Assembly: GCF_964213995.1 (NCBI RefSeq)
Contig: NC_135830.1
Coordinates: 11,098,001 to 11,162,000, forward strand
Length of the DNA: 64,000 nucleotides
Direction of reading: 5' to 3'
DNA from: Mustelus asterias
Taxonomy: Eukaryota
Position 1 is the stretch's first letter, and the number at the start of each line of letters is the position of its first letter. Made by a program: the position numbers and the translations under genes. This document shows, piece by piece, positions 7,796 through 37,153 of this stretch. The notes beneath the pieces were generated by a model. That model ran no database searches. It was given only the letters and a program-made list of their open reading frames with translations, and was not told the DNA's origin.

Positions 7796-10024
7796 CTCTA
7801 AAGTGCTGCCACTATATTACAGAATCTAATGTGCAAGTCTTGTTGACCACGTGCCCACACTGAATTTAACTTCCTTGGAACACGATCACACCAATGATGC
7901 TCCGAAACGCTGTTCAGAACAAACAGCAGAAATGACTCAGTGAAAGACAGGAACAAGAAACACACAGTGAGCGCCAGTCCTGTTGGCTCACAATGATCAG
8001 ACTTTGTGCGCGCATCAATAACTGATGTAGGATAATTGTAATATAAACAATTGAATGATGTAACCTAATAGATAGAACATTCTCTAGTGCAATATAAACA
8101 TGCTGCGAACTTGTGTCATATGATTAGAGAGACTATCTAGTGCAGCAGAAACTGGGAAGAGCCTCAAGCATTATAAACAGCGGTTTTATCTAGTCCACTA
8201 GTAAGTAATGCAGTGTCAAGTGTAGCATAAGGAGAATAATAATGAATCAGGCTCCACGACAGTACACCTGAACCATAGTTATGGTCCAACTGCCACCAGG
8301 TGGACGCAGAATGCTATGACACCAGTTTCTCTGACCTCTTCTGCAGCTGGAATTCTCCCGTCCCACTGCAATGAACGTAGATTTGGCTGAGCAACAAATT
8401 ATCTGTTCTCTTTGGCAGCTGAATTCTGACCGAAGTCTTTCACCCATTTTGTGCGATGGTTGCGGGTAAACACACCGGTGTGAAACACATCTGGAACAAC
8501 TAGACATACAGATGTCGGGTCCCACCTGAACAATGCCTTGGGATATCTGTGGAACTCAGAATGGAGACCAGCATCTCGTCCCCAGAACATTTCAAGATAT
8601 TTAAATATAAGGATTAAAATGAAAACTTGGATGAAATTGGATTAATTGGATTAATAAGAGTACATCTGTCTGAGGGTGCTTGATTTGAGAATTATCAAAG
8701 CAGAGGAAAACAAGTATTTATATAAGAGACTATGGGTTGAATAATATTGTGTAGAAAAATATGTAAGAACTATAGAAGAAGTGAGTACAAAGTGGAGAGA
8801 GGGAATATAAGTTGCAACTATTTGTAGGGATGCTATTAAGATACCATAACATCAAATAGGAAGACCCCAGTATAACGATAGGAGGGCCGCTGAGCACAGG
8901 AGGATAGGAGCAGCTGCTGCTATAGCCACACCCATGTAGAGAAAGCAGACTCTCCCAAAAGGGCAATGTGCTGAAAAAAACTGCTCTTTTAAAAACTCAA
9001 ACAGAGAAGCAACATTACGCTGAACTGAAGAAGGCTTTCCCAAACTGTAAAATAACCCGCAGATGGTAACTATAATCTGCATTTAACTCATAGCGTTATA
9101 TAATTTCGGATGTTGCTTGAGAAAGGGAAAGTTCTCATAGGGCAGATAGCTGTACAGCTGGGATGAGGGTTAACCTCATGAGATACTGTCTGTGTGTAGC
9201 CAATTTTGTCGTTACGTCCTCTGCTGAAGCTTATTATAATCTTTCTTGTGTGCTTGTTTTAAGTGAACAAATTTCCATCATTAATTATTTGCAATAAGAC
9301 TGGTCCACGTCTCACTATTTTCCATTTTTTTTACATGATATCAAATAGAAAATTTGCATAATTAAGAATTGGTATTCCAATTCATTCTTCTCGGTTTTGG
9401 GATACCCTCCCATTTAACATCAGCGAGGCTCTTAACAAACACACAGCAGTGGGTGCAGGTACATCTATAGGTTGACCTCCCAGATTCATTGTAATCGAGG
9501 AGTTCCATCTAGCTGCTTCAGAATGTTGCCAGAGGTCCATTTTCTTTCTCAGGATGTCAACCTTCTGGCTTCAGAATTTCTATTTAACTAAGATGACCAC
9601 ATCCACCACTCTCATCGGCAAATGTTCCCGGTTCCTGAGCACACGCTGTGGAAAAATGTTGCTCTTGTATCCGGCCCCCACGCCCCCGTCCAACATTGCC
9701 TGTAATCTTAAAAAAAAAACTCCGCTCCCCGCCTCAAGTTTCGTTAGTACCATCAAATAATGGGAATGCTTTTTCTTTATCTACATGAACAAAGCCTGTC
9801 TTAACCTAATCCACCTCGATTAACTCTCCCCTCAATCTCTTTCTCTCCCATGAAGGACAACATCTCCACGTTCAAACTTCTGGCTACTTTGTGAACTTCT
9901 CAAACTAATCTGACATCAAATAAATTTCCTCATGGAATTTAAATATAAGTCGTCAACTTTCGAAAAGCTTTTCTATGGAACTTAATTGTGTTATGAAATT
10001 CTTAGTGCTATACATAGTTTAAAG

Positions 10025-11195: not shown

Positions 11196-13995
11196 GAGTC
11201 ATAGAGTTATAGAGGTTGACAGCATGGAAACAGGCCCTTCGGCCCAACTTGTCCACGCCGCCCTTTTTTTTTAAAGCCCCTAACCTAATTCCAATTAAGA
11301 ACATAAGAACATAAGAAATAGGAGCAGGAGTAGGCCATCTAGCCCCTCGAGCCTGCCCCGCCATTCAATAAGATCATGGCTGATCTGACGTGGATCAGTA
11401 CCACTTACCCGCCTGATCCCCATAACCCTTAATTCCCTTACCGATCAGGAATCCATCCATCCGCGCTTTAAACATATTCAGCGAGGTAGCCTCCACCACC
11501 TCAGTGGGCAGAGAATTCCAGAGATTCACCACCCTCTGGGAGAAGAAGTTCCTCCTCAACTCTGTCTTAAACCGACCCCCCTTTATTTTGAGGCTGTGTC
11601 CTCTAGTTTTAACTTCCTTACTAAGTGGAAAGAATCTCTCCGCCTCCACCCTATCCAGCCCCCGCATTATCTTAGAGGTCTCCATAAGATCCCCCCTCAT
11701 CCTTCTAAACTCCAACGAGTACAAACCCAATCTCCTCAGCCTCTCCTCATAATCCAAACCCCTCATCTCCGGTATCAACCTGGTGAACCTTCTCTGCACT
11801 CCCTCCAATGCCAATATATCCTTCCTCATATAAGGGGACCAATACTGCACACAGTATTCCAGCTGCGGCCTCACCAATGCCCTGTACAGGTGCATCAAGA
11901 CATCCCTGCTTTTATATTCTATCCCCTTCGCAATATAGGCCAACATCCCATTTGCCTTCTTGATCACCTGTTGTACCTGCAGACTGGGCTTTTGCGTCTC
12001 ATGCACAAGGACCCCCAGGTCCCTTTGCACGGTAGCATGTTTTAATTTGTTTCCATTGAGATAGTAATCCCATTTGTTATTATTTCCTCCAAAGTGTATA
12101 ACCTCGCATTTATCAACGTTATACTCCATTTGCCATATCCTCGCCCACTCACTCAGCCTGTCCAAATCTCTCTGCAGATCTTCTCCGTCCTCCACACGAT
12201 TCACTTTTCCACTTATCTTTGTGTCGTCTGCAAACTTCGTTACCCTACACTCCGTCCCCTCCTCCAGATCATCTATATAAATGGTAAATAGTTGCGGCCC
12301 GAGTACCGATCCCTGCGGCACGCCACTAGTTACCTTCCTCCAACCGGAAAAACACCCATTTATTCCGACTCTTTGCTTCCTGTCGGATAGCCAGTCCCCA
12401 ATCCACTTTAACACACTACCCCCAACTCCGTGTGCCCTAATCTTCTTCAGTAGCCTTTTATGGGGCACCTTATCAAACGCCTTTTGGAAATCCAAAAACA
12501 CCGCATCCACCGGTTCTCCTCCATCAACCGCCCTAGTCACATCTTCATAAAAATCCAACATGTTCGTCAAGCACGACTTTCCCCTCATGAATCCATGCTG
12601 CGTCTGATTGATCGAACCATTTCTATCCAGATGCCCTGCTATCTCCTCTTTAATAATGGATTCCAGCATTTTCCCTACTACAGACGTTAAGCTGACCGGC
12701 CTATAGTTACCCGCCTTTTGTCTCCTTCCTTTTTTAAACAGCGGCATAACATTAGCCGTTTTCCAATCAACCGGCACTACCCCAGAATGCAACGAGTTTT
12801 GATAAATAATCACTAACGCATCCACTATTACCTCTGACATTTCTTTCAATACCCTGGGATGCATTCCATCCGGACCCGGGGACTTATCCACCTTCAGTCC
12901 CATTAGTCTACCCAGCACTGCCTCTCTGGTAACATTAATGGTATTAAGTATTTCTCCTGCTGCCAACCCTCTATCGTTAATATTTGGCAAACTATTTGTG
13001 TCCTCCACCGTGAAGATCGACACAAAAAACTTATTTAAAGACTCAGCCATATCCTCATTTCCCACTATTAACTCCCCCCTCTCGTCCTCCAAGGGTCCAA
13101 CATTCACTCTAGCCACTCTATTCCTTTTTATATATTTATAAAAACTTTTACTATCATTTTTTATATTAATTGCTAGCCTAGCTTCATAGTCTATCCTTCC
13201 TTTCTTGATCGCTTTCTTATTTGGCTCATGTACCTCTATACCCATCGAACCCGTGTAACTATCTAAATGCTTTTTAAAAGACAAAATTGTACCCGCCTCT
13301 ACGACTGCCTCTGGCAGCTTGCTCCAGACACTCACCACCCTCTGTGTGCAAAATTGTCCCTCTGGACACTTTTGTATCTCTCCCCTCTCATCTTAAACCT
13401 ATGCCCTCTAGTTTAAGAATCCCCTACCTTTGGGAAAAGATACTGACTATCTAGCTGATCTATGGCGCTCATTATTTTATAGACCTGCATAAGATCTCCC
13501 CTCAGCCTCCTACGCTCCAGAGAAAAAAGACCCAGTCTATCCAGCCTCTCCTTATAACTCAGTCCATCACGTCCCGGTAGCATCCTAGTCAATCTTTTCT
13601 GCACTCTTTCTAATTTAATAATGTCCTTTCTATAATAGGGTGACCAGAATTGCAGACAGTATTCCAAGTGTGGCCTTACCAATGTCTTGTACAACTTCAA
13701 CAAGACATTCCAACTCCTGTATTCAATGTTCTGACCGATGAAACCAAGCATGCCGAATGCCTTCTTCACCACTCTGCCCACCTGTGACTCCACCTTCAAG
13801 GAGCTATGAACATGTACCCCTCGATCTCTTTGTTCTGTAACTCTCCCAACGCCCTACCATTAACTGAGAAAGTCCTGCCCTGGTTCAATCTACCAAAATG
13901 CATCACTTCGCATTTGTCTAAATTAAACTCCATCTGCCATTCGTCAGCCCACTGGCCCAATTGATCAAGGTCCCGTTGCAATTGATCAAGATCCC
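11196..13995 (-). mobile_element. outer CR1 LINE fragment (11196-11296 + 13221-13995), interrupted by a younger CR1
   Basis: ORFs 13413-13799 and 13796-14101 carry CR1 ORF2 motifs; its 3' UTR/tail continues at 11196-11296. Confidence 0.85.
11297..13220 (-). mobile_element. young 5'-truncated CR1 LINE with uninterrupted RT-domain frame
   Basis: About 600 codons without a stop: KSPGPDG, NYRPVSLT, FLDFQKAFD, GVPQGSVLGP, KFADD; (TTCTTATG)n tail. Confidence 0.97.
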
Positions 13996-18695: not shown

Positions 18696-19151
18696 ATTTT
18701 CTCCAAACGCTGTTTACTAATATTGTTGGCTTTGTTGCCCGCTGAGTCTGTGTTGAATAGTCATTGTCTGTTCCCAGCGTTCATTACCAGAAATTGAATA
18801 GATTCTGTAATATGTTGCAGGAACGAATGACAAAGATGAGATGTTCCAAGGTCCCCCCGAATTAACGATACAGGAAAGACGGACCATAACACTGGGCTGC
18901 AGTTACTCGACGGCTGATGTTCGAACTCTGCTCTGGTACAACCAGCCTCGCGGGGAAGATCCGACATATTGATTGACGATATATAGCGCAGTGTGAAGAT
19001 TCTCCGGATAGATTTTCTGCTGTTTTGCACAAGAAAACATAAAATGGTTCCCTCAAATATCGCCGGAACACTTCTCTCTGACAGCACTGTGTCTTTCTGT
19101 GCCATGGAGCCCACACTACTGCAGAGGTTCAGAGAATCCCGTAGAAAAACC
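18696..19151 (+). pseudogene. TRAV/TRDV-like pseudogene (paralog of the 36.7-37.2 kb V)
   Basis: Leader start ATG>ATT and donor GT>CT relative to the paralog. V exon from about 18821 with TLGCSY, LWY, DSTVSFCAME, plus stops and frameshifts. RSS CACACTA + 24 + AGAAAAACC. Confidence 0.88.
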
Positions 19152-19230
19152 CCAGACAGGGAGTTACATTTGGCGATCAGCAGAGGACGCGCTTTCAGCG
19201 TTGAACAGAAACGATTAGCCTGTAACAGTT

Positions 19231-19405
19231 CACAGAATCCGACAGTGCAGAAGACACCCTTCGGCCCATTGAGTCTGCGCCGACACATGAAAGGCGCTGA
19301 CCTGCCCACCTAATCCAACTTGCCAACAGAATCGAGCCAGCCAGAAGTCGAACTTGGAATAATCTGATCCGTAATCAAATGCATTATCCATTGCGCCACT
19401 GGCCT
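19231..19405 (-). mobile_element. 175-bp chimeric retrocopy: full tRNA-Arg(ACG) head (19405-19333) + LINE/SINE-type 3' tail
   Basis: AGGCCAGTGGCGCAATGGATAATGCATTTGATTACGGATCAG...GGCTGGCTCG, then ...GACTCAATGGGCCGAAGGG...CTGCACTGT..GATTCTGTG. Flanked by ACAGTT on both sides; absent from the paralogous region near 36.6 kb. Confidence 0.75.
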
Positions 19406-19767
19406 ACAGTTACAGGACCATTGCTAAAATGACACAGCACAACATTCAACAAGAACAGATGAACAGCAACTGAGAAATTGAATGAGGTCTGTTTTAACTT
19501 GCATAACCTTTTCGTGTCTGTCTAAATTAATGAGCTACACTTCCTCTTTCTACAGTCTGTTTCTTGGTCGCATTTACCATAGCCGGTGCATAGTGTCTAA
19601 TTGGTCAGAATGTGTTGCTGGATTAGGCATAGTTTGTAGAAAATAATGCATTTCACAGCGCACCGATTACACTCTCTTAGTTACAGCAGTTTATTTTCCT
19701 TTCGATTGAATATTTTCTGACAAAATTGACAACCCAGTGTTTTCGCCTCAATATAACCAGGCTTTAA

Positions 19768-20985
19768 CATAAGACCATATGAAATAGGATCAGCAGAATT
19801 CCGTGCGGCCTCTCGAGTCATTCAATGGGATCGTGGCTGACCCAACATTCCTCACATTCAGTTTACTGCCCTTTCCCCGCAAGCCTCGATTCACCTACTG
19901 AACAAAAATCTATCTATCTCAGCCTTAAATATACGCAATGACTCTGCCCCCACAGCTCTCTGTGGTAAAGAGTTTCAACGACTCACAACCCTCTGAAAGA
20001 AGAAATTGCACCTCATCTCAATGTTCCTTTTTTTTTCTGAGACTGCGCCGTCTGGTCTGAGACTCTCCCATGAGGGGAAACACCCTCACAGCATTTAGCC
20101 CCCCAAGCCTCTCAATAATCCTGCATATTTCAATGAGATCACCTCTCATTCTTCTAAATTCGAATGAGTAGAGTCCCATCCTGTTGAACCTTCCCTGATC
20201 AGAAATCCCTCTGTATTGGGGATCATCCTCGTAAAACTTCTCTGCACTACCGCAATTAAATAATATATGTCCTTAAATAAGGAGACCAAAACTGCTTACG
20301 GTACCCCAGATGTGATCTCATCAGTATCTTGTGCAGTTGCAGCAAGACTTCAGTACTGTTATACTTCAACCCCCTTGAAATAAGGATCAATGTCCCATTT
20401 GCCTTCCTGATTATCTGCTGCATTTGTGTGATTTTTGATTTTGTATTTTGTGCACAAGTACCTCTCAAGTCCCGTATGTCTCTAATTGCATAATACTCTG
20501 TTCTTTTGTTCTCCTTTCCAAAATGAACATTTCCACATTTTCCCACATTAAACTGTATTTTCATTTTTTTTTGTCTACTTACTGAACTTATCAATGTCGC
20601 AACTTACCTTTCCACCCATGTTTGTGTTATCTGCAAATTTGGCGACAGTACATTTGCTTCCTCACTCCAATTCGTTAATATATATTGTAACCAGTTATGG
20701 TCCCTGGAACCCCACCGGTACATGTCGCCAAACTGAAAACACCGTATCCAAAATTGCTGTTTCCTGCCCATTACCCAATTGTCTATCCATGCCAATATAC
20801 TACTCCCAACACAATGGGCTCTTATCTTATGACTTGGCCTTTTGTTGGGTGCCTTCTCGAACCCCTTCTGGAAGTCAAAATAGAACACATCTACTGGTTC
20901 CCCTCTATCCACTCTGCTTGAGACTTCCTCGAAAAAACTCTAAAAAGTTACTCAAACACAATTACTCTTCCCCGTTCATGAAGTC
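19768..20985 (-). mobile_element. degenerate CR1 LINE
   Basis: Fragmented ORFs GEPVDVFYFDFQKGFEK and QFWSPYLR. Confidence 0.85.
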
Positions 20986-22164
20986 GTGATTTTGGGGTCC
21001 GTTGCTACCCCATCCCTAACAATAGAACTATTCTTCTTATAAGGATATTGACGATTGGGTGTTTCCAATTACTGACGGGCGGATTCACACCTACATATTC
21101 TAAAACACCACTGGGGTCACAGGGAAGGGATTTGAGAGAGTCCTCAGGCATGACAGCCGATTCTTGATTATGAAAAATTGAAGCACTTTCCTCAATCTCA
21201 AACTCCCTTTTCCAGAAAGGACAGCGATAATGTGGTACTGGAGCACGTGAGTTGTAAGGGTGTTCAGTGGGGGCATTTCCGACAGGTAGTCGTGAAATTA
21301 ACACATTTCATCTCAATTTCAAATCATGACTTTAATCTGAAATTTTAACGCACGACAGTATGATTGTTTCTTGTTTGAACATATATTTGAGATCTGAATC
21401 ATGGAGATTTTCTCACTCAGCTACTGTCCTGAAATGTTCATACAGAAGACGTGGCTGCAATAAACATCGACCACGATATTGTATGGAGTGAAAATGTTTC
21501 ACTCTGGAACCGAATTGTGCCAAACAAGCAGCATTCACAGCTTTGGCAAAGGGTTATCTGGATTCGAAACGTCAACTCTTTTCTCTCCTTACAGATGCTG
21601 CCAGACATGCTAAGATTTTCCAGCGTTTTCTCTTTTGGTTTCAGCATTCACTGTTATGGTCTGAAGATAATCGGTGAGAGCAAAAGCAGTAACAGCACCG
21701 ATGAGATATTAGGACTCTCTCTAACTCTGAGCGGAGAAAGAAAACTCTGAAGAGTTGAGAACAGAGACTAATAGCCGGAGTTTATGAAGGAAAGCAGACC
21801 CGCAACCGTAATTTGGACTGTGTGACATCCTCCGTGTCGGGATTAGTGGAGAATCGTCAATGGATGAGCAATGAGCAGGTCCACTATCAGCCGCTCTGAC
21901 ACCTGGAGAGGAAACCGCATTAACCTTGGATCAAACTGTCACCCAACTGTTTCCAGTAACGGCCCAGAAAACAAACTGCAGAATCCGAACAGACAGACAG
22001 ATCCATTATTAAATCAGTCTACAGGTTAGGTAGAGGGCCTTCCAGTTTCTGATAAGGTGTTAATTCACACAAGGTCAGGGCTGAATATTTAGATGAGCTC
22101 CGGGAGAGATATTTCTGACCCTCAGAATAGATCCACTGACGTCACTCAGACTGCAATGTGACAT

Positions 22165-22708
22165 AGAAACATAGAAGCTAGAAGCAGGAGGAGACCATTC
22201 GGTCCTTCGAGCCTGCTCCGCCATTCATTTTGATCATGGCCGATCATCGAATTGAATACCCTGATCCCGCTCCCTCACATATCCCTTGATACCTTCAGCC
22301 GCAACAGCTATGTCTAATTTATTCTAGAAATCAGACAACGTTTTGACCTCAACTACATTCGGTGGCAGTGAATTCCACGCGTTCACCATCTGGTGAAGAA
22401 ATATCTTCTCACCTCAGTTCTAAAAGATTTACCCCTCATCCTCAAACTATGACTTCTAGTTCTGGACTCTCCCGCCATTGGAAACATTCTTTCTGTATCT
22501 GCCCTGTCTAACTCTTTTAGAATTTTATAAGTTTCTATGAGATCCCTTCTCACTCTTCTAAACTCCAGTGAATATATTCCTAACCGTCTGTGTCACTCCA
22601 CAGATGACAGACCTACTATCCCAGGAATCAGCCTGGTAAACCTTCGCTGCACTCCCTCTATAAGCAAGGACATCAGTCCTCAGATAAGGAAACCAAAACT
22701 GCACACAA
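22165..22708 (-). mobile_element. CR1 LINE 3' fragment inserted into a V promoter region
   Basis: CATAGAA tail and CCTTCGAGCCTGCTCCGCCATTCA 3' UTR motif. Confidence 0.85.
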
Positions 22709-22835
22709 TCCGTCACACATATCCGCATTCCGACGTCATAATACTAGATACTCTGACGTCACAATGTCGGATACTCTGGTCTCACAGTGCCTGGATGTAC
22801 TGATGTCACACTGCCGGGTGTACTGACGTCACAGA
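22708..22835 (+). promoter_or_regulatory. ~23-bp tandem repeat carrying CRE (TGACGTCA) sites upstream of a V leader
   Basis: TGACGTCA at 22754 and 22824; variants at 22731, 22777 and 22801; a further perfect copy at 22137. Confidence 0.7.
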
Positions 22836-23045
22836 ATGCTCTAACGCATGCGCACCCTCATCCCTCAAATCCCAGCGATGCTGCAGCTCCCTCACTGCTT
22901 TACTTTGTGATCACAAGTCCCAGAGACCCGGCTTTGGCTTTCACAGTGGAACTGGTGCTGGGCTCCGTTTCATATCCAATACCGTTGCTTTCCCAGGAAC
23001 TCTTTCGGCTTGAGATCTATTTTACACAATTCGACGTGATCCAAC

Positions 23046-23578
23046 ATGAAGTTGAGCTTCAATTTAGTGATCATTTCCCTGGATTTCATACTCTTCCCTC
23101 AGTGTAAGTGTGGTCACTGTTTCTGACAGGAATATTTCACACACCAGATATATTGTGTTAAATTATACTCTGCTTTACTGTATTGTTTTCATTGTGTATA
23201 CAATGGTACTTTATTGTGATACATTATAATGCGCTATTTTATTGCTGCATATGCACATTAACTTCCCAGGTGCTGCTGGCGGTGAAGAGGTATCGCAGTC
23301 TCCGGAGTTCGTGGTGGTTACCGAGGGAGCCACTGCAACATTCACATGTTCCACAACAGTTCCACAGATCCTATACTGATACAGACAATACGAGGACAGA
23401 ATCGTGCAGCACCTGGTGAGCGTTACCAGGGATCCGGACAGGATCACGGCTCGGTACATTTTCTAAGAGAAACGCAGCACTCTGAAAGTTAGCGATACTC
23501 GAGTGACAGGTGCTGCCACCTACATCTGTGCAGTGCAGGCACAGTGTTGTAAAGATCAATACGAGTCGTACAAACACC
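23046..23578 (+). pseudogene. TRAV/TRDV-like pseudogene, short V domain, 23-RSS
   Basis: Leader 23046-23103; V exon from 23270 EVSQSP...FTCST...LY*YRQ...IF*EK...ATYICAVQ. RSS CACAGTG (23540) + 23 + ACAAACACC. Confidence 0.9.
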
Positions 23579-24223
23579 TGCAGAGGAGCAGTCCTACTGG
23601 TTGTAGCCTGTGCTTCATCAGAAAGCTGGACATTTTATAAAACTCTCCCTGGAAAACCTCTCCCAATCTCCCAGTAAGTGAAATACACTCCTAATCTGTG
23701 TTCCTTTCTAATATCAGTCGAAAAGGAAGAAGCACTTTGAGATGTGCGTTATTGCTTGTCAAAATCCACACCAGACGCCGTGTGCTGTCCAAGGTCCTTT
23801 GTGATAATCGCTGTGCTGTTCGGTGCTTTTTAAACGTTAATTGTTCATTCCATGGGTTAAATTTAAGTCCAGATTTTTCCACATTCTGGACTTTGTCACA
23901 GAATCCAGTGAGGCAGACTCACTGTCCTTGGATCTCTTCGAGTCTGGAAGAACATCCCACAATGATCTGTTAAACTTACTGCATATCCCTTGGCTCTCGC
24001 TACGTCGGTCGGCAGATACGAATTTGGGTATTTTCCGAGATATTTGCTGACATGATATACGTCGGGGTATGGTGATAAGCCTGAAGATTTCCCAGACTGG
24101 CTCTATGTTGATTTCAACAAGGGTTTGAACAGCAATGCAAGTGATTGGTATAAAAACCTATCTTTGTAAACCTGGAAACAAGCTCAGCTAAAGACATCAA
24201 AGACACAGGACAGAGAGCGCTGA

Positions 24224-25212
24224 GGTTTTTGTGCAGGGTTTTAGCTGTAATCTAACGCTGTGCCTCACAGCACAGCAATAGACCGCTCGGTCCTCTCCAC
24301 TGAGGCCGCTTATAACTAGACTTTGTAGACTCGTCAGCAGCCGCCAGATATCGCCCTGAGATCGCATCTTTCTTCAGTGCTACTACATTACTAATTATCC
24401 ATCTTGGAGGCTCTGCCGGTTTCTGTCGATACCACTGCATGGTGTCTATAGCCTGGTCTGTATATTTGCAATCCAGCTTCGCCGAACCCCCTTCCGACAG
24501 AGTTACCGACACGGGGACTGATTTACCGCACATAGCCCGCCTGTTAAAGTAAATGAAAAATAAGATCGCGATGAAAGAGGATCGATCTATCTGTATAAGT
24601 GTGCGCGAATTTCCATTTTCCAACCTGCCCCTCTAAATATATACCTGATCTTTATCCATTTTAAATCGAAACAGAAAAACGTTGAAACGAGAAGCAGGAG
24701 TAGGCCAGTCGGCCCTTCGAGCCTGCTCCGCCATTCATTTTGGTCATTACTGATTATTGAGTTCAATATCCTGGTTCCCCATTCCCCAATATCTCTTAAT
24801 TCCTTTAGCTCCAAGAGCTATATCTAATTTCTTCTTGAAATCAGACAACATTTTGGCCTCAGCTACATTCTGTGGTAGTGAATTCCACACATTCTCCACG
24901 CTCTGTGTGGAAAGATTTCTCCTCACCTTTGTTCAAAATGGTTTACCCCTTATCTTCAAATTTTGACGGCTAGTTTTGGACTCCCCCATCATTGGGGGCA
25001 TTCTTTCTGAATCTATCCTGTCTAACCCTGTTAGAATTTTATGAGATTCTATGAGATCCCCTTCACTCTTCTAAACTCCAGTGAATATAACCCTGACCGA
25101 TTTAGTCTCCAAAAATCATAGCACAATCTATTTTATCAATCTGCTAAACTGTTTGAACGAACATAATTCATCACTTACTGTCCCAGAGCATCACCAGTAT
25201 GATCAGAAACAT
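24224..25212 (-). pseudogene. TRAV/TRDV-like pseudogene, 23-RSS, CR1 in intron
   Basis: Leader 25212-25179 MFLIILVMLWD; V exon from 24540 LDCKY...QWYRQKP...EDRAVYCCAVR with two frameshifts. RSS CACAGCG + 23 + ACAAAAACC. Confidence 0.9.
24670..25110 (-). mobile_element. CR1 LINE 3' fragment
   Basis: Same 3' UTR motif as the 22.2 kb copy. Confidence 0.8.
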
Positions 25213-25959
25213 GTCTGACCGAATCTCTGTCAGTGAATGGGAATGGAATGAGTCAGGGATTGAGAAGGAGCGAGGGGAATCGGGTTCTGTTCAGCACATT
25301 GTTCCACATACTCACAGCAGGGGGCAGGGCCATTGCGACCTCACTCAGGAAACCATCCATATTGGCTTTGCCGTTGGACCCAGGTGACTTTCAAATTAGC
25401 ATGCTTGGATTTGGAGCCCTCTGCTTAGAATGGGGGTCACTGACAGGATTTCGGGTTTGTTAATTTACATCCGAAAACACGAATATCAAGTACCTTCTTC
25501 AAGGAGGTCTACATTGAAATTGATCAGACTGAATTATATTGCTCGCTGATGTTCAGGCAATATTTAACGTTTATAAATCATATTTAGAAACCATGGAATC
25601 ATCGTTCAGTGAGACTGTCCAGATATTGGAGAAAGTAAACTGGAATAGTTCCACGGAGGACGGCATTCAATGATCAGATGATTATGTGAAAATGAAATTG
25701 CTCTTCTTTTATCAAATAATGAAATTAGTTTCTTAATTTTAGTGCTCAGAATATTTTAAAATTTGATGCAATAGATCACGCAAAACTGTTTCAAACGGTC
25801 GATCATTCGATAATCCAAGTGTGCCAGTTTAAGAGAAGGAAAAGCATAGAATGATCGTATTCATTGCTGCCCTGTCAGTTGTTCAAAGTTGGAAACACAT
25901 TGCCTAAAATGGTGGCAGAATATTAAACACAAATGTTTAGAAGGAAATTATATGTATAA

Positions 25960-26400
25960 GAAGGTAAGAACTAGGAGCAGGTGTCAGCCATCAGGTCCCT
26001 CGAGCCTGCTCCGCCATTCAACAAGATAATGGCTGATCTTTTTGTGGACTCAGCTCCACTTGCCCGCCCGCTTACCATAACCCTTAATTCCTTTACTGTT
26101 CAAAAAATTATCTATCCTTGTCTTAAAAACATTCAATGAAATAGCCTCAACAGCTTCACTGGGCAGGGAATTCCACAGATTCACAACCCTTTGTGTGAAG
26201 AAGTTCCTCCTCTACTCAGTCCTAAATCTGCTTCCCCTTATTTTAAGGTTATGTCCTCTTGTTCTACTTTCACTCGCCAGTGGAAACAACTTCCCTGCTT
26301 CTATCTTACCTATTCCCTTCATAGTCTTATATGTTTCTATAAGCTCTCCCCTTATTCTTCTGAATGTATCTTGAACAAAGATATCCCCTCATTCTTCTGA
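25960..26400 (-). mobile_element. CR1 LINE 3' fragment
   Basis: CR1 3' UTR and C-terminal coding remnant. Confidence 0.8.
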
Positions 26401-26868
26401 ATGTATCTTGAACAAAGAATCTGATCAGTGTGAAAAATGCGGGGATGAAAGATGATTTGGAGAACTTTTCCAAAGAGGCATAGATAGGACGAATGGCCTC
26501 AATCGGCGCTCCAAGATTCTAAGATTCTCATTGCATCGTGTCCCAGCCGCTCTACTTATTGTTGGACAACTGAACAATGAGCAGGCGCAGGATGGCCAGA
26601 GACTTTTGTAGATTCAACCGTCGCTAATTCCGCTCCACCAGCTCCCAGTGCAGCTGAGAGTCACCACACACTTCATTCAATATTGAGTCTGCCGTATCCC
26701 CGCCCACAGCTTCCGTTTGTTGTTCTCACTTTGACCCGATTGTGTGATTGGAAAGATTGCTGCATTCCTTTCATTGGTTGGATGAGCAATGCAGTGGGAC
26801 GGGCATCTGTATTTCTGTCTCTGACAGAGGATTCATCTCACTGCACAGTTACAGACTCAGGAAGGATA

Positions 26869-27540
26869 ATGGTGAACTATCTCATTCCGATCTTCATCAT
26901 TATCTCACTGCTCAGTAAGTAGGTTTTGGCGCAAAGGGGATCAAAGGATATGGGAGAAATGGGATCCGGTTATTGAGTTGAATGATCAAACATTGATCAA
27001 ACTGAATGGCTGGGCACGATCCAAGGGCCGAATGGACTACTCCTAATCCTATCTCCGATGTGTTTATGTATTTCCTTTCTGGAAAACCAAATGCTATTGC
27101 TAACAAATAATAATGATCGTTTTGATGACCATTTTGTTGAGGAATATTCGGCTCGTACTGATTACTTTTCTTTTTACCCTTATTTTATGTTAGAATGGAG
27201 TAGCCAAGACACAGTGGAGCAGCCGGGTGCCAAAATAATAGCTGAAGAGGAAAGTAATGTCACAGTTACCTGCAACATGAAGACGAGCACTTCTAACCCT
27301 TATGTGTACTGGTATAGTCAGAGTCCCGGGCAGCCTCCACACTACATGCTTCGTATTGTGGGAGGGAAACTGTACAGACACACCGACATCAGCGACCGCT
27401 TTTCAGCATTTCAGCATTAAATAAAACTGTCAAGATTACTGAGCTAATGATCGGCAACACGGTGATGACTGACAGTGCGGTATGTTTATGTGCCTTAGAC
27501 CCCACACTGCGATAGATATGGCGGGTCCCATACTAAAATC
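26869..27540 (+). pseudogene. TRAV/TRDV-like pseudogene
   Basis: Leader 26869-26914 MVNYLIPIFIIISLL; V exon from 27194 DTVEQP...VTCNM...YWYSQ. An 8-nt duplication (TTTCAGCA) causes a frameshift. RSS CACACTG + 22 + ACTAAAATC. GC box and CCAAT boxes at 26700-26780. Confidence 0.9.
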
Positions 27541-27565
27541 CCACAGTAAGTATTTCAGTTGGTGC

Positions 27566-27579
27566 TCAGCAGAGGGCGC
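27566..27579 (+). promoter_or_regulatory. CTCF-like motif 25 bp 3' of RSS
   Basis: TCAGCAGAGGGCGC versus CTCF core CCASYAGRKGGCRS; same motif and spacing at 19177-19190 (+) and 36670-36683 (-). Confidence 0.65.
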
Positions 27580-28185
27580 TCTCACGCCGTTAGACAGTAA
27601 CAATAAAGTTAAAATCGCCACAGCCGCAAAGGCTGGAGGCAATTTAACCTGAGGATCACACCACATCTCAGGAGAGCGGTCAAGGTTGAGGTGGCGGCGA
27701 CTTCATGAATGAACACACCGTGTACAGGTATTGAACCTATGCTGTCAGTGCTGCTTTGCGTCACAAGCCAGATATCCAGCAACTGAGCTGAACGGCAACA
27801 TTCTCATCACTTACTCTACCTATATGCGAGCATTTGTCATTCACGCACCATTTACTTCATAAGTTTCTTTGTGTTTCTTCTTGTCAAAATGCATCACATC
27901 ACATTCGCAATTTTGACTTTCTTCCTCTTCTCTTCGCATTGTTTCCCAATTTTCTGTGCTCTGTACGTATTGTTACTGCACTTTTTTGCCTTGTCCTTCA
28001 CTCATTCTGATTTGAATGTAATCTCTTCTATTTTCTTCGGATACATTTCCAACCCTTCATTTTAATCTTTTTTAAATTTTCTGATTCAAGAAATGTTTTT
28101 CTCTCTTTCGCCTTACCATTGGAATTTAATATCGCGCTTCTTGAAACGCTGTTATTCCCGCGGAGCGGTTTTTGAAAACGGTGCA

Positions 28186-28550
28186 AGTTTTGGTACGGGA
28201 CCTCCCTGTGTTTATTACACTGTGCCTCATGGTGCAGAAATAGGTGGCAGTGTCTGAAACCTGTACGTCTCTCACAGTCAGGATGCTGAGTTTGTTGCCT
28301 TCTCCGATCGAAGTAGTGATCCTCCCGTGTTGATCGGTTCCTCTTGTGGCCATCACTGGGGCGACTGATTCGGGAGCTGTTTATACCAACGCACGATGTC
28401 AAACGGAATGGAAATAGTGCAGTTCATGGATATATTCCTCGCTCCACTGATAACCATCCGTGGAGGGAGCTGCAGCAACTCAGCTTCTCCGGTCACCCCC
28501 GTGCAGATCAGAGTGAAAAACAACAAAACGTCGATGCAAATCCTGACCAT
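28186..28550 (-). pseudogene. single-exon leader+V TCR V pseudogene, 23-RSS
   Basis: MVRICIDVLLFFTLICTGVTGEAELLQLP...MNCT...WYKQ continuous with no intron; frameshift near 28355; DTATYFCTMR. RSS CACAGTG + 23 + ACCAAAACT. Confidence 0.9.
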
Positions 28551-29169
28551 TCTCAGTTCACACACAACACCGAGATCAGCTTTGAACCAGGCGATGAACA
28601 TTAACCCGGAGCCAAGTATTTTCTTCGGGTTCAGTTCAGTGCCGTGTTTATGTTGAAGTTACAACATTAGGTGGGTTCTACTTTAGCCACTCATACTGAG
28701 CGTTTCACACTGACACAGGCCTACACAGCCTCTGAGTACACACCTGACACGCCCAGATTAAATATTTCTCACGCGACACACTGCTCTCTACTGGTGAATA
28801 CTGGTAATTGCAGGGTGCAATTCTTCACTTGGATCTTCGACAAGTTGCAGTTCACAAGATAGTTATGAATGAGAACAGCTGTTTCCTCCTTCTTGTTATA
28901 GCTCTTTTATTGCGGGAGAGCTTACAACGTTCCTTCTGTTCTACGATCCAACGATTGCAGTGCATTTTGCTCTCTCGTTCTTTCTGAAGTCTCATTCCAC
29001 ATTGTGACCAGTCCCGGTGTGTTAGTCCTAAAATATCGTTCGATAATTTGGGAACTTGTGCAATGGGAACTGGTCTATCCATCGAATATTTGTTACATAA
29101 CTACAGGAGTAGAAACCTTGACAACTCATAAGAATATTTCAAAAAATAATAAGTTTGTTATCAGTGATA

Positions 29170-30074
29170 AAACTATGTTTCTGCATTTGTTCCTTCAATC
29201 AAATTTTCTTCAATAAAAACACGCGCTCCGATAATGAACTTAATGCAGTGTCCTTCTGCCCTCTCCTGGTGGAAAAAAGCACTACAATATGCAACTTTAA
29301 AATAACCTGTTTCATTTCGGGAATCAAGATTGATTCCAACAACTGCTGATCATACATTCTCCTCAGTATGAAGTATATTTTTAATTTCTCTTCTTTTTGA
29401 TTGCGCCTGGTGGTATTGAATCTGATTTTCATTGTTGCAACTCATTGATCATCCGATGTTCCAACAATCCTTTTAGAGCGGATCATGGATATTGTGTCAC
29501 TCCACCTCTATCTTCAGGAGTTCAGGTAGAAGTAGAATGGATGACATAAAATCTATTTCTAATACAAGATGCGGGTTGGGGGAATAATGGTAACTGGATC
29601 TAACATCATGAAACATAGCCAGTGTTAATTCTGACAAAATACCCGATTGATGGTGATGATCAAGCAGTTTGCCAACACCGATTTCTGCGCAACCCGACAT
29701 TTCAAAAAAAATCATGTTAACCAACTCTCGGCTGCAACTAAGCAAAGCTGCCGTTTAGACCTGCGTCCAAATCTCAGTGTTCGAAAACAGTTGAACACCG
29801 GTGCAGGTACTTTCTCAGATGTGAATACCACCAGGCGCAATTAAAAAGAAGAGAAATTAAAAATATACTTCACACTGAGGAGAATGTATGATCAGCAGTT
29901 GTTGGAATCAATCTTGATTCCAGAAATGGAACAGGTTGTTTTAAAGTTGTATATTGTAGTGCTTTGTTTTTCCACCAGAAGAGGGCAGAAGGACATTGTA
30001 TTAAGTTCATTATCGGAGCGCGTGTCTTTATTGAAGAACATTTGATTGAAGGAACAAATGCAGAAACATAGTTT
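29170..30074. repeat. inverted repeat (arms ~29170-29418 and ~29823-30074)
   Basis: Arms of about 250 bp are reverse complements with scattered mismatches; spacer about 400 bp. Confidence 0.9.
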
Positions 30075-31182
30075 GGACGAACCAACCCTTTACCGTAAAC
30101 ACGATTTTTTGTATAAGTATGCTGCGAATATTGCAAGTGATCGAGATCCTAAGGTCAGGGTCTACATGCGATGTCCATCCACTCTCATTCTGCGTAAATC
30201 TATTAAATAGCCAGTTCTAGCCCTCCATTCGTCCCATTTAAAAGATGGTGTTTGGCTATTTACCACATTGTTCTATTCAATTCTCTCAGGACTCAGTGGC
30301 CTCTTGCATCAGCTACGGTGAGTTTTCACAGTTAGAGATCAGCTCTTTTAATTTGGGCTCCGGCTATGATTCCGGAACAACATTAACTAATTTCAAATTA
30401 AAGCAAATTACTGAGGATGCTGGAATCTGAAACCAAAAGAAAAATGCTGGAATATCTCTGCTGCTTTGGCAGCACCTATAAGGAGAGAAAAGAGCTGACG
30501 TTTCGAGTCCGGATGACCCGCTGTCAAAGCTAAAAGGCATGAGAAGTGGGAGGTGTTTATACTTTTTGGTAAAGGAATGAAATATGAGTCATAGCCACAA
30601 AAACAAAGGGAAACGCCGCTAGCAGTCCAAAGAGAGACTAGTAGGTGTGAATGGCCAAACGACAGAGAAACTGAAATCAGAGGGTAAGCTGTGACAGATG
30701 AAGATAAGGAGGGAGGGGGGAGATGGATGGAAAAGAGGTAAAATTGAGAAAACGGGGGGAAAGCGAAGCAAAGGAGGAGAAAAGAAATGGAAAGGGGAAA
30801 GAGTAGGAGGCGGATAAGAAAGACAATAAAGGAATAAAAGGAAGAGAACAGTTAAAAATTAACCGATTTCCTGTTCTCACTCCGCCTTCCAGGTTGAAGA
30901 GATTAACTGGACAAGTTTGGGTCTCATCCCTGTCCAGGTCCCCGGAAGGTGAACAAACTCACTTAGTTTCTTTCTCCCGGCGCTGAGACCCAAAGGGGCC
31001 GTGCGCTGATTGGGTCATTTGAAGACAATGGAATTCTAAGGCTGGATGTCAATGAATGACGTTGTCAGCAATAAACCAATCAGCAATGGCCCGGATGTAA
31101 CTCAACTTCATACCAGCTCTTGACAATTAAAATGTTAACTTCAACAATCTCTGCTCACATCCGCCTCGGCCCCTCTGCAAAC

Positions 31183-32072
31183 ATGTCTCCTGTGACTCTG
31201 AGCTTATTCTTCACCGCTGCAGCTCTATTAACCGGCAGGTTCACAAGTTACAAACTCTGTGTTTTACGTATTTACCATTCACTGCATTCAATTGCGCAGT
31301 TCGATTAACACACTGGTAAAATATATATTAATTCTAATATCAATTAGAATCCACTTTGTCTCACCAAGGGAGGAGGCAAAATACTTCAGCTGAATGAGAG
31401 CGAAGAGTTAAAGTGGGATTGCAGGCCCCACTGTAGCCGGTGAGGGACTTTGACAAACTCGATAAACTGGATAAAAGCTTTGACAAACCCGAGATCTATA
31501 AACCCACGGACAGTTTAGTTTCCCCTTCAAATAACGTAAAGCGAAGGCGAGGATCTGATCTCCTTCGAAGGTGTTCATTTAACGGAGTGTCATTTAACCG
31601 CTGCAAACACGATCCCGTTACAACCTGCGTGTTGCGGGAAATATGTTTCTGTTTAGATCCTTTGATTCATTTTTCAGATTATTGGCCAGGGTGACGGGCC
31701 GAATCCGGCCATTAGACGAAGTGAACTCACGTCGTTTAATTTAGCATTACTCTTGTCTCTTACAGGACAATGTGGAGGAGATTCAATTTCACAGATGCCG
31801 GCTGCAGTCACAGAGAGTAAAGGAGATGATGTTCAGTTATTCTGTAATTATACAACTGCAAGCATTGACAATTATTACCTATTCTGGTACCGTCAGTGTC
31901 CCAGCGGATCCATGGAGTATCTACTGATGAGAAGCAAATATACTGGGAACACAGAGAGATTCCCAGGGGACCGTTTATCAGCGGAGCTCAATGATACAAC
32001 CCGCACCATTCAGCTGAAAATGTCTAAAACAGAGCTGGCAGACGCCGGTGTGTATTACTGCGCATTGAGTCC
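31183..32072 (+). CDS. TRAV/TRDV-like V segment, intact V exon, leader needs a GC-AG intron
   Basis: Leader 31183-31234 MSPVTLSLFFTAAALLT G|GCAGGT; V exon 31766-32072 DSISQ...LFCNY...FWYRQ...DAGVYYCALSP. CCAAT and TGACG motifs upstream. Confidence 0.9.
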
Positions 32073-32111
32073 CACAGAGGCACAGAGCTGGGCTGAACCT
32101 GTACAAAAACT
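32073..32111 (+). promoter_or_regulatory. 23-RSS
   Basis: CACAGAG + 23 + ACAAAAACT; a second CACAGAG lies at 32081. Confidence 0.9.
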
Positions 32112-32169
32112 CTCAGAGCCTCACCCAACATAACACTGCGTTCGGCAAATATTGTGATCAGGGATCATT

Positions 32170-33230
32170 GCTTTTCAAATTGGCAGGCAGTAACTAGTTG
32201 AGTGCCACAGTTACCGGCACTAGGACCCCAGCTATTCACAATATATATTAATGATTTGGATGAGGAAACAAAAAGTTTTCAGATGATACCAAGTTGGGTG
32301 GGAGAGTGAACTGCGACGAGGATGCAGGGATCCTTCAGAATGACTTGGACAGGGTGGGTGAGTGGGCTAATCAATGGCAGATGCCGTATAATTTGGATAA
32401 ATGTTGAGGTTATTCACTTTGGAAACAAAAACAGGGAGGCAGATTACAACCTGAATTGCTGTAAATTGGGAGAGGGGGAGTGTGCAGCAGGACCTGGGTG
32501 TCCATGTGCACCAGTTACTGAAACTGAAGGTAAGCATGCAGGTATAACAGGCAGTAAAGAAGGCAGATAGCATGATGGCCTTCATTTGCGAGAGGTTTCG
32601 CGTACAGGAGCAGGGATTAGTTGCTGCAATTATACAGGGCCTTGGTGATGCCACACCTAAAGTATTGTGTGCAGTTTTGGTCTCCTTTTCTGTGGAAGGA
32701 TGTTTTTTTCTCGAAGGAATGCAGAGAAAGTTTATCAGGCTGATTCCAGGGATAGCGGGACTGATGTATGAGGAGATTGACTAGGTTAGGACTGTTTTCG
32801 CTGGAGTTCAGACGAATGAGGGGAGATCGCATAGAGACTTATAAAATTTCGAACAGGACTGGACAGAGTAGATGCAGGGAGGATGTTCCCGAAGGTGGAG
32901 GAGTCCGGTACCAGGGGTCATAGTTTGAGAATTCAGGGTAGACCATTTAGGACGGAGGTGAGGAGACATTTCCTCACCCAAAGAGCCTGTGGAATTCATG
33001 ACCACAGGAAAAAAGCTGATGCCAAAACATTGAATGCATTTAAGAGGTGGCTGGAAATAGCACTTGGGGCGAATGGGACCCAAAGTTATGGGGAAAAAGC
33101 AGGATTAGGCTATTGAGTTGGATGATCAGGCATGATCCTAATGAATGGTGGAGCAGGCTTGAGGGGCCAGATGGCCTCCTCCTGCTCCTATCTTCTATGT
33201 TGCTATGTATGATAGAATGTTTCTATGTAT
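32170..33230 (+). mobile_element. degenerate CR1 LINE
   Basis: Decayed GPQLFTIY...DDTKLG...FWSP motifs; TTCTATG tail. Confidence 0.85.
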
Positions 33231-33805
33231 GATATCTGATACGTTTAATTCAATTACATACTTTCAGTTGTACTACATACGTCACAACAAAACATATCGA
33301 TGAGAATTGGCTAGTTGTTTAATGAACACAGAAATATTATAGAGCGCTTTTCTCGATGCCTGGAATGTTTGACTGTCACGGTTATGATGTACTGGAGATA
33401 ACACAGAGCACTGTATGATACATTTAATCACGAATTTTATAATGACCTGTCTGTTTATAATGGCCACAGCTGGAGGACTGGAGGACATTCAATGTGGTAT
33501 CATTCTTCCTGAAGAAAGGAAAGGATAAATCAGGAAACCACAGGCATGACAGTCTGGCATCAGTGGTGGAAAACAATTGGAAGTAATTCTGAGAAACGGA
33601 ATTCATCTGCAGTTGGAGAGGCAGAGATTAATCAAGAACAGTCAGCATGGTGTTATTTGGGGGAGGTCATCCATTTCTTGCTTGCTCAGTAAACCGAATT
33701 CAAAATCCAATTCACAGTTCGCACACGAGTGACAAACATACCCAAGCTGACAAGATAAGATATTGCATCCCATTTTAGGAACATACGAATTAGGAGCGAG
33801 ATTAG

Positions 33806-35190
33806 ACAATGCTGAGGTCTATATCTGCTTCAAGAAGACGACCATCATCCCAGAACCAAAGAACAGCTCAGCAGCGTGCCTTAATGACTATCATCCGGTG
33901 GCTCTGACATCCAGCATTGTGAAGTGCTTTGAAAGGTTAGTCAAGGCACGGATCAATTCCAGCCTCCCAGATTGCCTGGATAAACTACAGTTTGCCGAAC
34001 ACCGCAACAGGTCCACTGCAGGCGCGATCTCTGTGGCCCTGCACTCAACCCTGGAACACCTAAATAACAAAGACACCTATGGCAGACTCCTATTCATTGA
34101 CTACAGCTCAGTATTTAACACCATTATTCCTGCGAAACGCATGTCCAAACTCCGTGGCCTGGGCCTGGGCTCCTCCTTCTGCGACTGGATCCTGAACTTC
34201 CTAACCCACAGACCACAATCAGTAAGAATGGGACCAGACCTCCTCTACGTTCATTCTTTATACTGATGTCCCACAATGCTCTGTTCTCAGCCCTCCACTG
34301 TACTCCTTACAACCTACGACTGTGTGGCCAAATTCCCCTCCAACTCGATTTTCAAGTTTGCTGACGACACCACCATAGTGGGTCGGATCTCAAATAATGA
34401 AGAGACAGGATACAGAAATGAGATCGAGAATCTGGTAACTGGTGCGGCAACAATAATCTCTCCCTCAATGTCAGCAAAATGAAGGAGATTGTATTCGACT
34501 TCAGGAAGCATAGTGGAGAACATGCCCCTGTCTACATCAATGGAGATGAAGTAGAAATGGTCGAGAGCTTCAAGGTTTTAGGCGTCCAAATCACCAGCAA
34601 GCTGTCCTGGTCCCGCCATGCTGGCACTATAGTCAAGCAAGCTCACAATTATTTTCTCAGAAGATTGAGTAAATTTGGCATGTCAGCTACGACTTTTACA
34701 GATGTACCATAGGGAGCATTATTTCTGGCTGTATCAGAGATTGGCATGGTCCCTGCTCTGCCCAAGACCGCAAGAAACTACAAAAGGTCCTGAATGTAGC
34801 CCAATACATGATGCAAACCAGCCGCCCATCCATTGACTTTGTCTACACTTCTCGCTGCCTCGGCAAAGCAGCCAGCAAAATTAAGGACCCCACGCATCCC
34901 AGACATTCTCTCTTCCACCTCCTTCAATCGGAAAAAAAGATACAACAGTCTGAGGTATGTACCAACCGACTCAAGAAACAGCATTTTCCCTGCTGCCATC
35001 AGACTTTTGAATGGACCTGCTTTGCATTAAGTTGATCTTTCCGTACACCGTAACTATGAAAGTAACACTACATTACGCACTCTCTAATTTCCTTCCCTAT
35101 GAACGGTATGCTTTGTCTGTGTAATGCGCAGGGAACAATACTTTTCACTGTATACCTATACATATTATAATAATAAATCAAATCAAATCG
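33806..35190 (+). mobile_element. Rex1/Babar-type LINE fragment
   Basis: CFKKTTIIP...NDYHPVALTS...LFIDYSS...KFADDTTIVG; (AAATC)n tail. Confidence 0.88.
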
Positions 35191-36210
35191 ATTCAGCCCT
35201 TCGAGCCCGCTCCACCATTCTATATGTTCATAACAGAGCTCCATCTAATCCTAACTCCACTTCCCTGCCTTTTCCCCATAGCCCTTTATCCTGCTTTTGA
35301 TCAAATATGTATCTATCTCTTTCCTGAATCCGTTGATGTATTTTGTATCCGCTACAGTGTGACAGTGAGTTCCATAGATTTAGTAACCTCTTTGAGAAGT
35401 AGCTTCTCCTTATCTCTGTCTTGACCCCACACCCCCCACCCCACCCCCCACCATAATTACTCCATGACTATGATCTCTTGTCCTGGACTGTTCTAGAAGG
35501 GGAAACATCTGGTTAACAATTAATTTACCAATCACGTTGAGTATTTTATACACCTCAATCAAATCCCCACTCATTCGTCTGTACACCAGCGTGTATAAAT
35601 CCAAGCTACTACACCGCTCTTCATACGACAACCCCTTCAAGATATTGACGAGACCACAGCTGGAATACTGGAACCAGTTTTGGGCTTCTTATTTCATTAT
35701 TTCATTGGAAGTAGTTCAGCGAAGGTTTACGAGGATAATCCCCAGTATGGAGGGATTGTCTTACGAAGAAAGGTTAAACAGGATTGTACTCTACTCACTG
35801 GAAGTTAGAAAAACGAGATGCGACCTCGTTCAAACATATAGGATTATTGAGGGGTTTGACAGTGTAAATGCTGAGAGGATGTTCCCCTCGTGGGAGAATC
35901 TGAGGTCAGAAAACATCGTCTGAGAATAAACGAGCGCTAATTGAAAACTAAGATGAGGAGCAATTTCAATTTCTTTTTACAGAGGGTTGTGGGTCTTTGG
36001 AACTCATTGCTACAGATAACTGCGGGGCTGGAGTCATTGTGTATATTTAAGGCTGAGATAGATAGATTTTTGTTCAGTAAGCGAATCAAGTGTTACGGGG
36101 AACGGGCCGTAAAGGGTACGTGAGGAATGTTGGAACAGCCATGATTCCATTGAATGACAGAACAGACTCCAGAGGCCGAGCCTTACCCTGGCCCTTTGTC
36201 ATTTGGTCTT
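35190..36210. mobile_element. two degenerate CR1 3' fragments in opposite orientation
   Basis: Minus ORF 35410-35640 and plus ORFs 35537-36123 with GLSYEER motifs. Confidence 0.75.
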
Positions 36211-36708
36211 AAGGTTAAAGCCTGGTTCCTTTAAGCCGAAGACACTGGGCTGTCAATTCTGTCAGAAACCATTCAATCGAAAGGAAAATAAACATTGATG
36301 TAACTAAAGAGTGCAATCGGTACATTGTGAAACGTATTCATTTTCTACAAAACTGCGTCCATATCAACAACACGTTCTAATCAGAGACACTATGCACCGG
36401 CTGTGATAAATGGGACACAGAGAGTAGAGATTGAGAATGTGTTGCTCATTAATTCAGATAGACAGGAAAAGATCATGAAAATGCAAAACGTGAGTGAGGG
36501 CATAATAAATTGATTTGCGAAATTATTTTGCAGTACAAATGCAAGTTACAACGTGCCTAATACAATTCCTCTGTTGCTGCTCACCTGTTCATGTTGAATG
36601 TTGTGTTGTTTTAGAAACGTCCTTGAAATCTCACAGGCTAAAAAATTGCTTCTGTTCATCAGTGCGAGCGCGCCCTCTGCTGACCACTAACTGGAACTCC
36701 CAGTCTGG

Positions 36709-37153
36709 GGTTTTTGTCCGGGGTTCGCTATATCTCTGCACTAGAAATATACGGTACTGTCAGAGAGAAGTGTTCCGGCGAAACTTAATAGGACCGTTTT
36801 GCTTCTATTGTGCAAAGCAGCAGAACATCTCTCTGGAGAATCTTCAACTATGGCTCCTGTGCTATATATCGTCAATAAATAAATCGGAGCTTCCCCGTGA
36901 GACTGGATGTACCAGAACAGAGTCGGAACACCAGCTATCGAGTAACTGCAGTCCAGTGTTCTGGTTTGTCCTTCCTGAACCGTTAATTCAGCGGGATCTT
37001 GGGACACTTCATCTTTGCCATTGGTTCCTGCAACAAATTACAGAATCTCTCAAATATCTGGGGGAGAACGCTGGGAACAGACAGTGACTATTTAAACACA
37101 GACTCACCGGGCAGGAAAACCAACAGTATTAGTAAAGAAAATTGGGAGAACAT
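36709..37153 (-). pseudogene. TRAV/TRDV-like pseudogene lacking C104 and the RSS heptamer
   Basis: Intact leader 37153-37108 (MFSQFSLLILLVFLP) and open V to DSTVYF*. About 19 nt deleted relative to the paralog; nonamer ACAAAAACC kept at 36717-36709. Confidence 0.9.

Follow-up and report, generated by a model that had tools for sequence, protein, structure and literature searches.

We examined a 64,000-nt stretch of the shark Mustelus asterias (GCF_964213995.1, contig NC_135830.1, positions 11,098,001-11,162,000 of the forward strand; hereafter the window) in which three variable (V) genes carry a CTCF-like sequence shortly behind their recombination signal sequence (RSS). Eleven V segments lie between 0.2 and 37 kb, five on the plus and six on the minus strand, and none was found from 38 to 64 kb. 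Judging by its V-set domains, 23-type RSSs and closest relatives, the window fits an alpha/delta V region of shark T cell receptor (TCR) genes: all five V segments tested matched Pfam V-set, the best PDB matches of V36740 are TCR alpha chains, and V32073 is 61% identical to a TCR alpha chain of Stegostoma tigrinum. A protein word search with V36740 as query returned no match, nor did one with V27503, and the ESM Atlas gave generic V-set clusters only; the V27503 family is provisionally assigned to TCR alpha/delta by its locus context alone. Only V1769 and V32073 look intact, with an open V exon and both cysteines, and the other nine V genes are defective through stops, frameshifts or lost cysteines.

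The three carrier genes and a shared cassette

V19112 is a TRAV/TRDV-like pseudogene (exon 18820-19111, plus strand) in which the start codon and the splice donor of the leader are gone and which contains a stop and frameshifts. Its RSS (19112-19151, plus) is degenerate, with the heptamer CACACTA, a 24-nt spacer and the nonamer AGAAAAACC at 19143-19151. V36740 (exon 36744-37031, minus strand) is its inverted paralog, in which a 19-bp deletion has taken out the heptamer together with the codon of the second cysteine; a consensus nonamer stands at 36717-36709 (minus) without its heptamer. This inverted duplicate is 77% identical to V19112 over 1.15 kb, and the V segments are 81% identical in nucleotides; within the paralogous block 17 CpG dinucleotides are retained and 43 are present in one copy only, a count that was uninformative. 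V27503, on the plus strand, has a leader exon with ATG and GT donor (26869-26914), a V exon (27199-27502) frameshifted by about 5 extra bases near 27408-27416, and an RSS (27503-27540) made up of CACACTG, a 22-nt spacer and the decayed nonamer ACTAAAATC at 27532-27540. A first-pass annotation of this DNA had placed V27503 in a different V family, and rightly so, as it is 46% identical in nucleotides to each of the two paralogs, where unrelated families in the window range from 33-52%. Spacers of 22 nt occur in the RSSs of V7233 (minus) and V27503 (plus), and the indels listed for V27503 relatives include no compensating insertion.

Behind each of these nonamers stands a 14-nt CTCF core; here and throughout, CTCF sites and cores are predictions from sequence. 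The cores lie at 19177-19190 (plus), 27566-27579 (plus) and 36683-36670 (minus; 36670-36683), each separated from its nonamer by exactly 25 nt and oriented like its V gene, just as first described. The copy at 19177 has one substitution relative to the other two. Compared with the published CTCF consensus CCASYAGRKGGCRS (PMC6746451, Fig. 1 legend), the copies at 27566 and 36683 have one mismatch and that at 19177 has two. For matrix matching we used an approximation of MA0139.1, on which all matrix scores, p values and ranks rest; by this measure the cores at 19177, 27566 and 36683 reach p values of 7.6e-6 (rank 11), 6.1e-7 (rank 3) and 2.8e-7 (rank 1, the best score in the window). The likeness to CTCF exceeds chance: the window holds seven matches to the consensus at up to one mismatch (0.63 expected) and 18 at up to two (7.3 expected), and 0 of 100 shuffles reached either number. 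We regard the three as strong predicted CTCF cores. The remaining eight V segments had been described as lacking a clear motif, and within 150 nt after their nonamers the matrix indeed found no site better than p=3.9e-4, the best being a weak CTCF-like match behind the intact-looking V1769 (1833-1851, plus, at +28) that is not homologous to the block described below.

Each core is embedded in a 64-bp block that begins directly after the nonamer and which we call the cassette (19152-19215 and 27541-27604 on the plus strand, 36645-36708 on the minus strand). In ungapped comparisons anchored on the nonamer, V27503 and V36740 agree at 16/25 positions of the spacer, 14/14 of the core and 16/25 of the next 25 nt (46/64 in total), and V27503 and V19112 at 14/25, 13/14 and 16/25 (43/64). 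Among 52 control pairs the corresponding means were 6.7, 3.1 and 7.2 and the maxima 11, 7 and 12. Of the earlier description, a kept motif behind 25 poorly conserved nucleotides, the first half stands and the second does not, the spacer being well above every control. The core is nevertheless better kept than its flanks in both comparisons between families (14/14 vs. 32/50, binomial p 0.002; 13/14 vs. 30/50, p 0.008). Other conserved blocks lie at +10..+16 and +40..+64, and past the 3' end of the cassette identity drops to background (7-8/36), a sharp boundary. Because the block is homologous across families whose V exons are 46% identical, the alignments indicate that the three sites are copies of one inherited cassette and do not represent three events. 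With nhmmer the window yielded no fourth copy, the next best match having E 0.78. A dispersed repeat or a piece of a tRNA or short interspersed element (SINE) was rejected as its identity for the window, where there is no extra copy and no Rfam match over the cassette.

The cassette may also hold part of the CTCF upstream motif (zinc fingers 9-11), published as CTGCAGTTCC with a permitted linker of 2-7 bp (PMC12885311). At a 6-bp linker, positions +7..+16 match it at 7/10 in the 36 kb copy (36693-36702, minus) and 6/10 in the 19 kb copy, against background rates of 1.1% and 4.8%, and do so in the core-proximal 3' half only. V27503 matches at 3/10, or at 6/10 when the letters of the related contigs described below are used (AGTTCC restored). 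We consider this likeness suggestive.

Relatives of the cassette outside the window

Contigs of four of the seven sequencing runs listed, a set with no RNA run and none recorded as a ChIP or chromatin assay, were aligned to 27181-27660 at 80% likeness, two runs (X1 and X3) being from this species (organism A) and one each from two relatives (X5, organism B; X6, organism C). Summed depth peaks over 27549-27612 in all four (929-950 vs. about 200 beside the peak in X1, 64-74 vs. 22 in X3, about 540 vs. about 100 in X5 and 36-41 vs. 4 in X6), since contigs that stem from other genes align here over no more than about 27556-27604. Many further copies of the cassette are thereby seen in this species and the two relatives. 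Among the loose ends listed, those before cassette pieces continue as a V36740-type flank in all four runs, and the contigs run on into RSS-type flanks, unlike a dispersed repeat. The gap from nonamer to core is 25 nt in all five listed loose ends that reach the nonamer or its end (two in X1, two in X3, one in X6), and a 20-letter loose end of X5 fits the same register. None of the 40 substitutions listed falls within 27562-27585, whereas 27561, 27586 and 27598 do vary. One paralog of organism A is broken by a 6-base spacer deletion.

Longer pieces from organisms A and B lack the 5 bases at 27408-27416, so that the frame would be kept, and have TAT-TTC at the pre-cysteine codons (the Y-F-C set). 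In pieces of A, B and partly C the nonamer is better than that of the window and agrees with the consensus, with the letter A at 27534 and C at 27539. Taken together, the missing insertion, the Y-F-C codons and the better nonamer make it likely that in-frame, intact members of the V27503 family exist. A second depth peak, at 27245-27321, reflects a related multi-copy V family that aligns to this part of the V27503 exon only. Separately, a metagenome scan for a nonamer followed after 15-30 nt by the CTCF consensus gave 49 matches, of which 0 had a V domain upstream (best E 1.2), and these were dismissed as chance.

Proteins predicted through the RSS offered another view of the same region. Among 153 proteins examined, 63 are V models that read through the RSS, 44 of them with sufficient length for testing. 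The clustered pair P0086 and P0153 (Logan), 46% identical to V36740, shows SADGAL at offset 25, where the window cassette translates as SAEGAL, behind a quite different spacer translation. The background rate of a SADGAL-type pattern is 2.7e-4 per position, and the best possible matrix score in register is 19.6 for this pair vs. at most 10.9 for the other 42 of the 44 tails. The serine agrees with T as first core base, and the P0086 sequence would allow an identical core at that offset, though its spacer differs. In its 3' third (27580-27604 and counterparts) the cassette is conserved across families and also at the protein level in P0086. P0003, from the skate Leucoraja erinacea, ends in H-stop, which would allow a CCACTAG core to start at offset 24; we take this as a protein-level lead only. 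A core in this register was absent from the read-through tails of Chiloscyllium P0059 and P0015 and of ENA P0028, and from Callorhinchus P0117, the tail of which stops too early. The remaining tails, many apparently of bony fish, gave nothing in this register, other frames and spliced models limiting the test.

Other predicted sites and features of the window

Strong CTCF predictions are concentrated in the V cluster. Eleven matrix matches scoring at least 13 lie in 1-38.2 kb (0.94 expected; maximum of 6 in 100 simulations) and none in the V-free 25.8 kb (0.49 expected). Eight of the 11 are not RSS-adjacent and stand upstream of or between V genes. The site at 28794 (28779-28813, minus), upstream of V28224, combines a core with 8/10 of the upstream motif at a 6-bp linker and resembles, by analogy, the promoter-side sites of mouse TRAV genes. 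A two-sided site at 8288-8308 lies some 1.07 kb upstream of the heptamer of V7233, and another (25311-25329, plus) is flanked by the 5' ends of V24262 and V27503. The sites upstream of V19112 (17148-17166, minus) and V36740 (38022-38040, plus) occupy paralogous places and have retained high matrix scores though 8 of their 19 bases differ; together with the RSS site, each brackets its V gene in divergent orientation. A pair of CTCF-like cores pointing apart (29254-29272, minus, and 29972-29990, plus) sits in the arms (29170-29425 and 29815-30074) of a 260-bp inverted repeat (94%), which may be a small DNA transposon carrying CTCF sites.

At the start of the cluster, V231 (253-486, minus; RSS at 231) stands head to head with V1769 and has shark VNAR domains as its best PDB matches; it is likely to be a NAR-TCR-type V pseudogene. 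A 445-bp inverted repeat, 99% identical (5659-6103 and 6391-6835), lies between V5207 and V7233. An open frame of 665 residues at 11395-13392 (minus) resembles the reverse transcriptase of long interspersed elements, many decayed copies of which are found between V genes. Matches to tRNA-Thr and tRNA-Cys with good scores were found together with weaker tRNA-like pieces (45923-45995, minus; 51857-51930, plus; 19332-19406, minus), and some of these may be SINE heads.

A possible anchor for V gene choice

In the mouse, CTCF-binding elements (CBEs) lie 17-19 bp after the nonamer of immunoglobulin heavy chain (IgH) V genes, the VH genes, where they are clan-restricted, share one orientation and are bound by CTCF (PMC6746451, PMC4914699). 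During RAG scanning, RSS-associated CBEs of the mouse favour use of the VH gene next to them (bioRxiv 10.1101/2020.01.01.891473). The shark element is like the CBEs of mouse proximal VH and human clan II/III VH genes in that a core follows the nonamer at a short, fixed distance, in one orientation relative to the V gene and in some V clades only, is better kept than the spacer and has a CpG near its 3' end. It differs in its distance (25 nt, or 23 counted as in the mouse paper, vs. 17-19 in mouse and 19 or 48 in human), in belonging to TCR alpha/delta V genes rather than mammalian IgH, in the homology of spacer and 3' flank among its copies, in sites that point both ways and in the pseudogene state of its carriers in the window. 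CTCF binding and an effect on usage have been seen for VH CBEs, whereas the shark element is a prediction from sequence. The mouse Tcra/Tcrd V region, a locus of the same type, has CTCF sites mostly upstream of V promoters or intergenic (PMC5859386); the shark window too has predicted sites upstream of its V genes, pointing either way, but those of the cassette are RSS-adjacent. V-proximal CBEs also occur in mouse Tcrb, another TCR locus, where two CTCF sites lie near an RSS (PMC5859386) and the Trbv1 CBE acts as a loop anchor that promotes rearrangement and can allow synapsis irrespective of orientation (PMC10772921); unlike in the shark, these are isolated cases in the beta locus, and the available parts of the two papers report no clade-wide fixed spacing. 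In full-text searches joining CTCF with cartilaginous fish and RSS or TCR, seen as listings and abstract openings and with most subscription papers outside their scope, no report of the element was found. CTCF occurs 0 times in PMC12227049 and PMC13433984, and the motif was found in 0 of the 11 files searched among the 19 supplements of PMC10322711. Judged by sequence, the element is a real, conserved and probably unreported variant of the RSS-associated CBE.

We lean towards the explanation that one shark TCR alpha/delta V clade has inherited the 64-bp post-nonamer cassette, with its predicted CTCF site 25 nt on, and that the cassette promotes rearrangement of the intact members of that clade; we hold this to be somewhat probable. 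CTCF would bind the cassette, the core of which points away from the V exon, and would there halt loop extrusion by cohesin beside the RSS. The stalled cohesin would then hold the RSS near the RAG-loaded recombination centre at the diversity and joining (D/J) segments and raise the contact between them. The cut would part the element from the V exon, so that its action would fall on recombination and not on expression. Because the V genes lie in both orientations, synapsis of a diffusion type would have to contribute, and the anchor could serve inversional joins in this way, a mode put forward for mouse Tcrb, and would not depend solely on one-way scanning. Since the three carriers in the window are pseudogenes, one of them without a heptamer, these genes cannot gain productive use from the element, and the three copies are likely to be relics or leftover loop barriers.

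Several observations weigh against a role in promoting rearrangement. All three carriers in the window are defective, and non-functional members of mouse VH families typically lack the site (PMC6746451). However, nine of the 11 window genes are defective, and the defects of the carriers therefore say little against the element. No such CTCF-like site stands behind the two intact-looking V exons, V1769 and V32073, and trees do not firmly join V27503 with V19112 and V36740 in one clade (support 50/81). All three copies begin their core with T where the consensus has C, which CTCF does not explain, nor does CTCF alone account for the equal conservation of the 25 nt on either side of the core. When the paralogs V19112 and V36740 are compared, the core has no significant advantage over the flanks (13/14 vs. 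37/50, p 0.09). The window copies and the related contigs stem from one ancestral element, so their counts are not independent; the contigs are short pieces that aligned because they match the motif, an ascertainment effect, and their summed depth is not copy number. P0086 and P0153 are one event at the protein level only, in which 1.9% of codon choices reach a score of 13. The first-pass annotation had suggested an RSS-CTCF module in a chondrichthyan TCR locus, and the conserved element that extends beyond the window speaks for this. Its argument from independent retention loses weight, the three sites being homologous and derived from a single cassette, and a simple transfer of the one-way RAG scanning of mouse Igh misfits a locus with V genes in both orientations. 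The sites themselves share no facing toward the D/J recombination centre, two being on the plus strand and one on the minus strand, the latter in the inverted duplicate without a heptamer.

A bound site of this kind could instead serve general folding or insulation of the locus, its place beside the RSS being inherited and the use of the adjacent V gene not controlled. The eight strong V-cluster sites away from RSSs agree with this, as do the position of the best-scoring copy on a gene without a heptamer and the 144 bound CTCF sites of mouse TRA/TRD, which are mostly upstream of V promoters or intergenic (PMC5859386) and thereby also count against an RSS-directed role. Nevertheless, the spacing stays at 25 nt without gaps between families, in relatives and in P0086 while the spacer itself turns over, which suggests a constraint on the distance to the RSS, and we think this explanation rather unlikely. 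It is also conceivable, if improbable, that the cassette is a recombination-control element bound by one or more other factors, its likeness to CTCF being partly incidental, for a second, CTCF-free class of elements exists downstream of mouse VH genes (PMC4914699). The non-consensus T kept at core position 1 would fit such a factor, and so would the conserved blocks at +10..+16 and +40..+64, with the 3' part kept in the P0086 protein. However, conservation is highest over the CTCF core itself, and the block at +10..+16 can be read as the 3' half of the CTCF upstream motif, set off by a linker of permitted length.

More doubtful still is neutral hitch-hiking, in which RSS and flank were copied between families by duplication or gene conversion and the CTCF-like word arose by chance. 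The RSS spacers are alike across families too (13/22 and 11/22), the cassette ends sharply, its carriers are pseudogenes and one base of the 19 kb copy has decayed, all of which neutral copying would produce. It does not readily explain why the core is better kept than its flanks in both comparisons between families, why the related contigs are without a core substitution among those listed, or why P0086 appears to keep core and offset behind an unrelated spacer.

RSS-adjacent CTCF elements have so far been described, in the available parts of the literature, from mammalian IgH and from isolated cases in mouse Tcrb. We therefore put forward tentatively, as a real possibility short of a probable one, that CTCF-anchored control of V choice at the RSS goes back as far as the jawed vertebrates themselves. 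A clade of shark, and probably skate, TCR alpha/delta V genes would keep a site about 25 nt behind the nonamer; RSS-adjacent CBEs would be either ancestral or have arisen twice, in shark TCR and in mammalian IgH, and in an array of mixed orientation linear RAG scanning would not be the whole story. If this is true, loop extrusion was already tied to V(D)J recombination in early jawed vertebrates, or else the case is one of convergence. The presence of the cassette with an intact core would then be a simple sequence predictor for V usage in sharks, and the locus would offer a natural case of CBE action where V genes face both ways.

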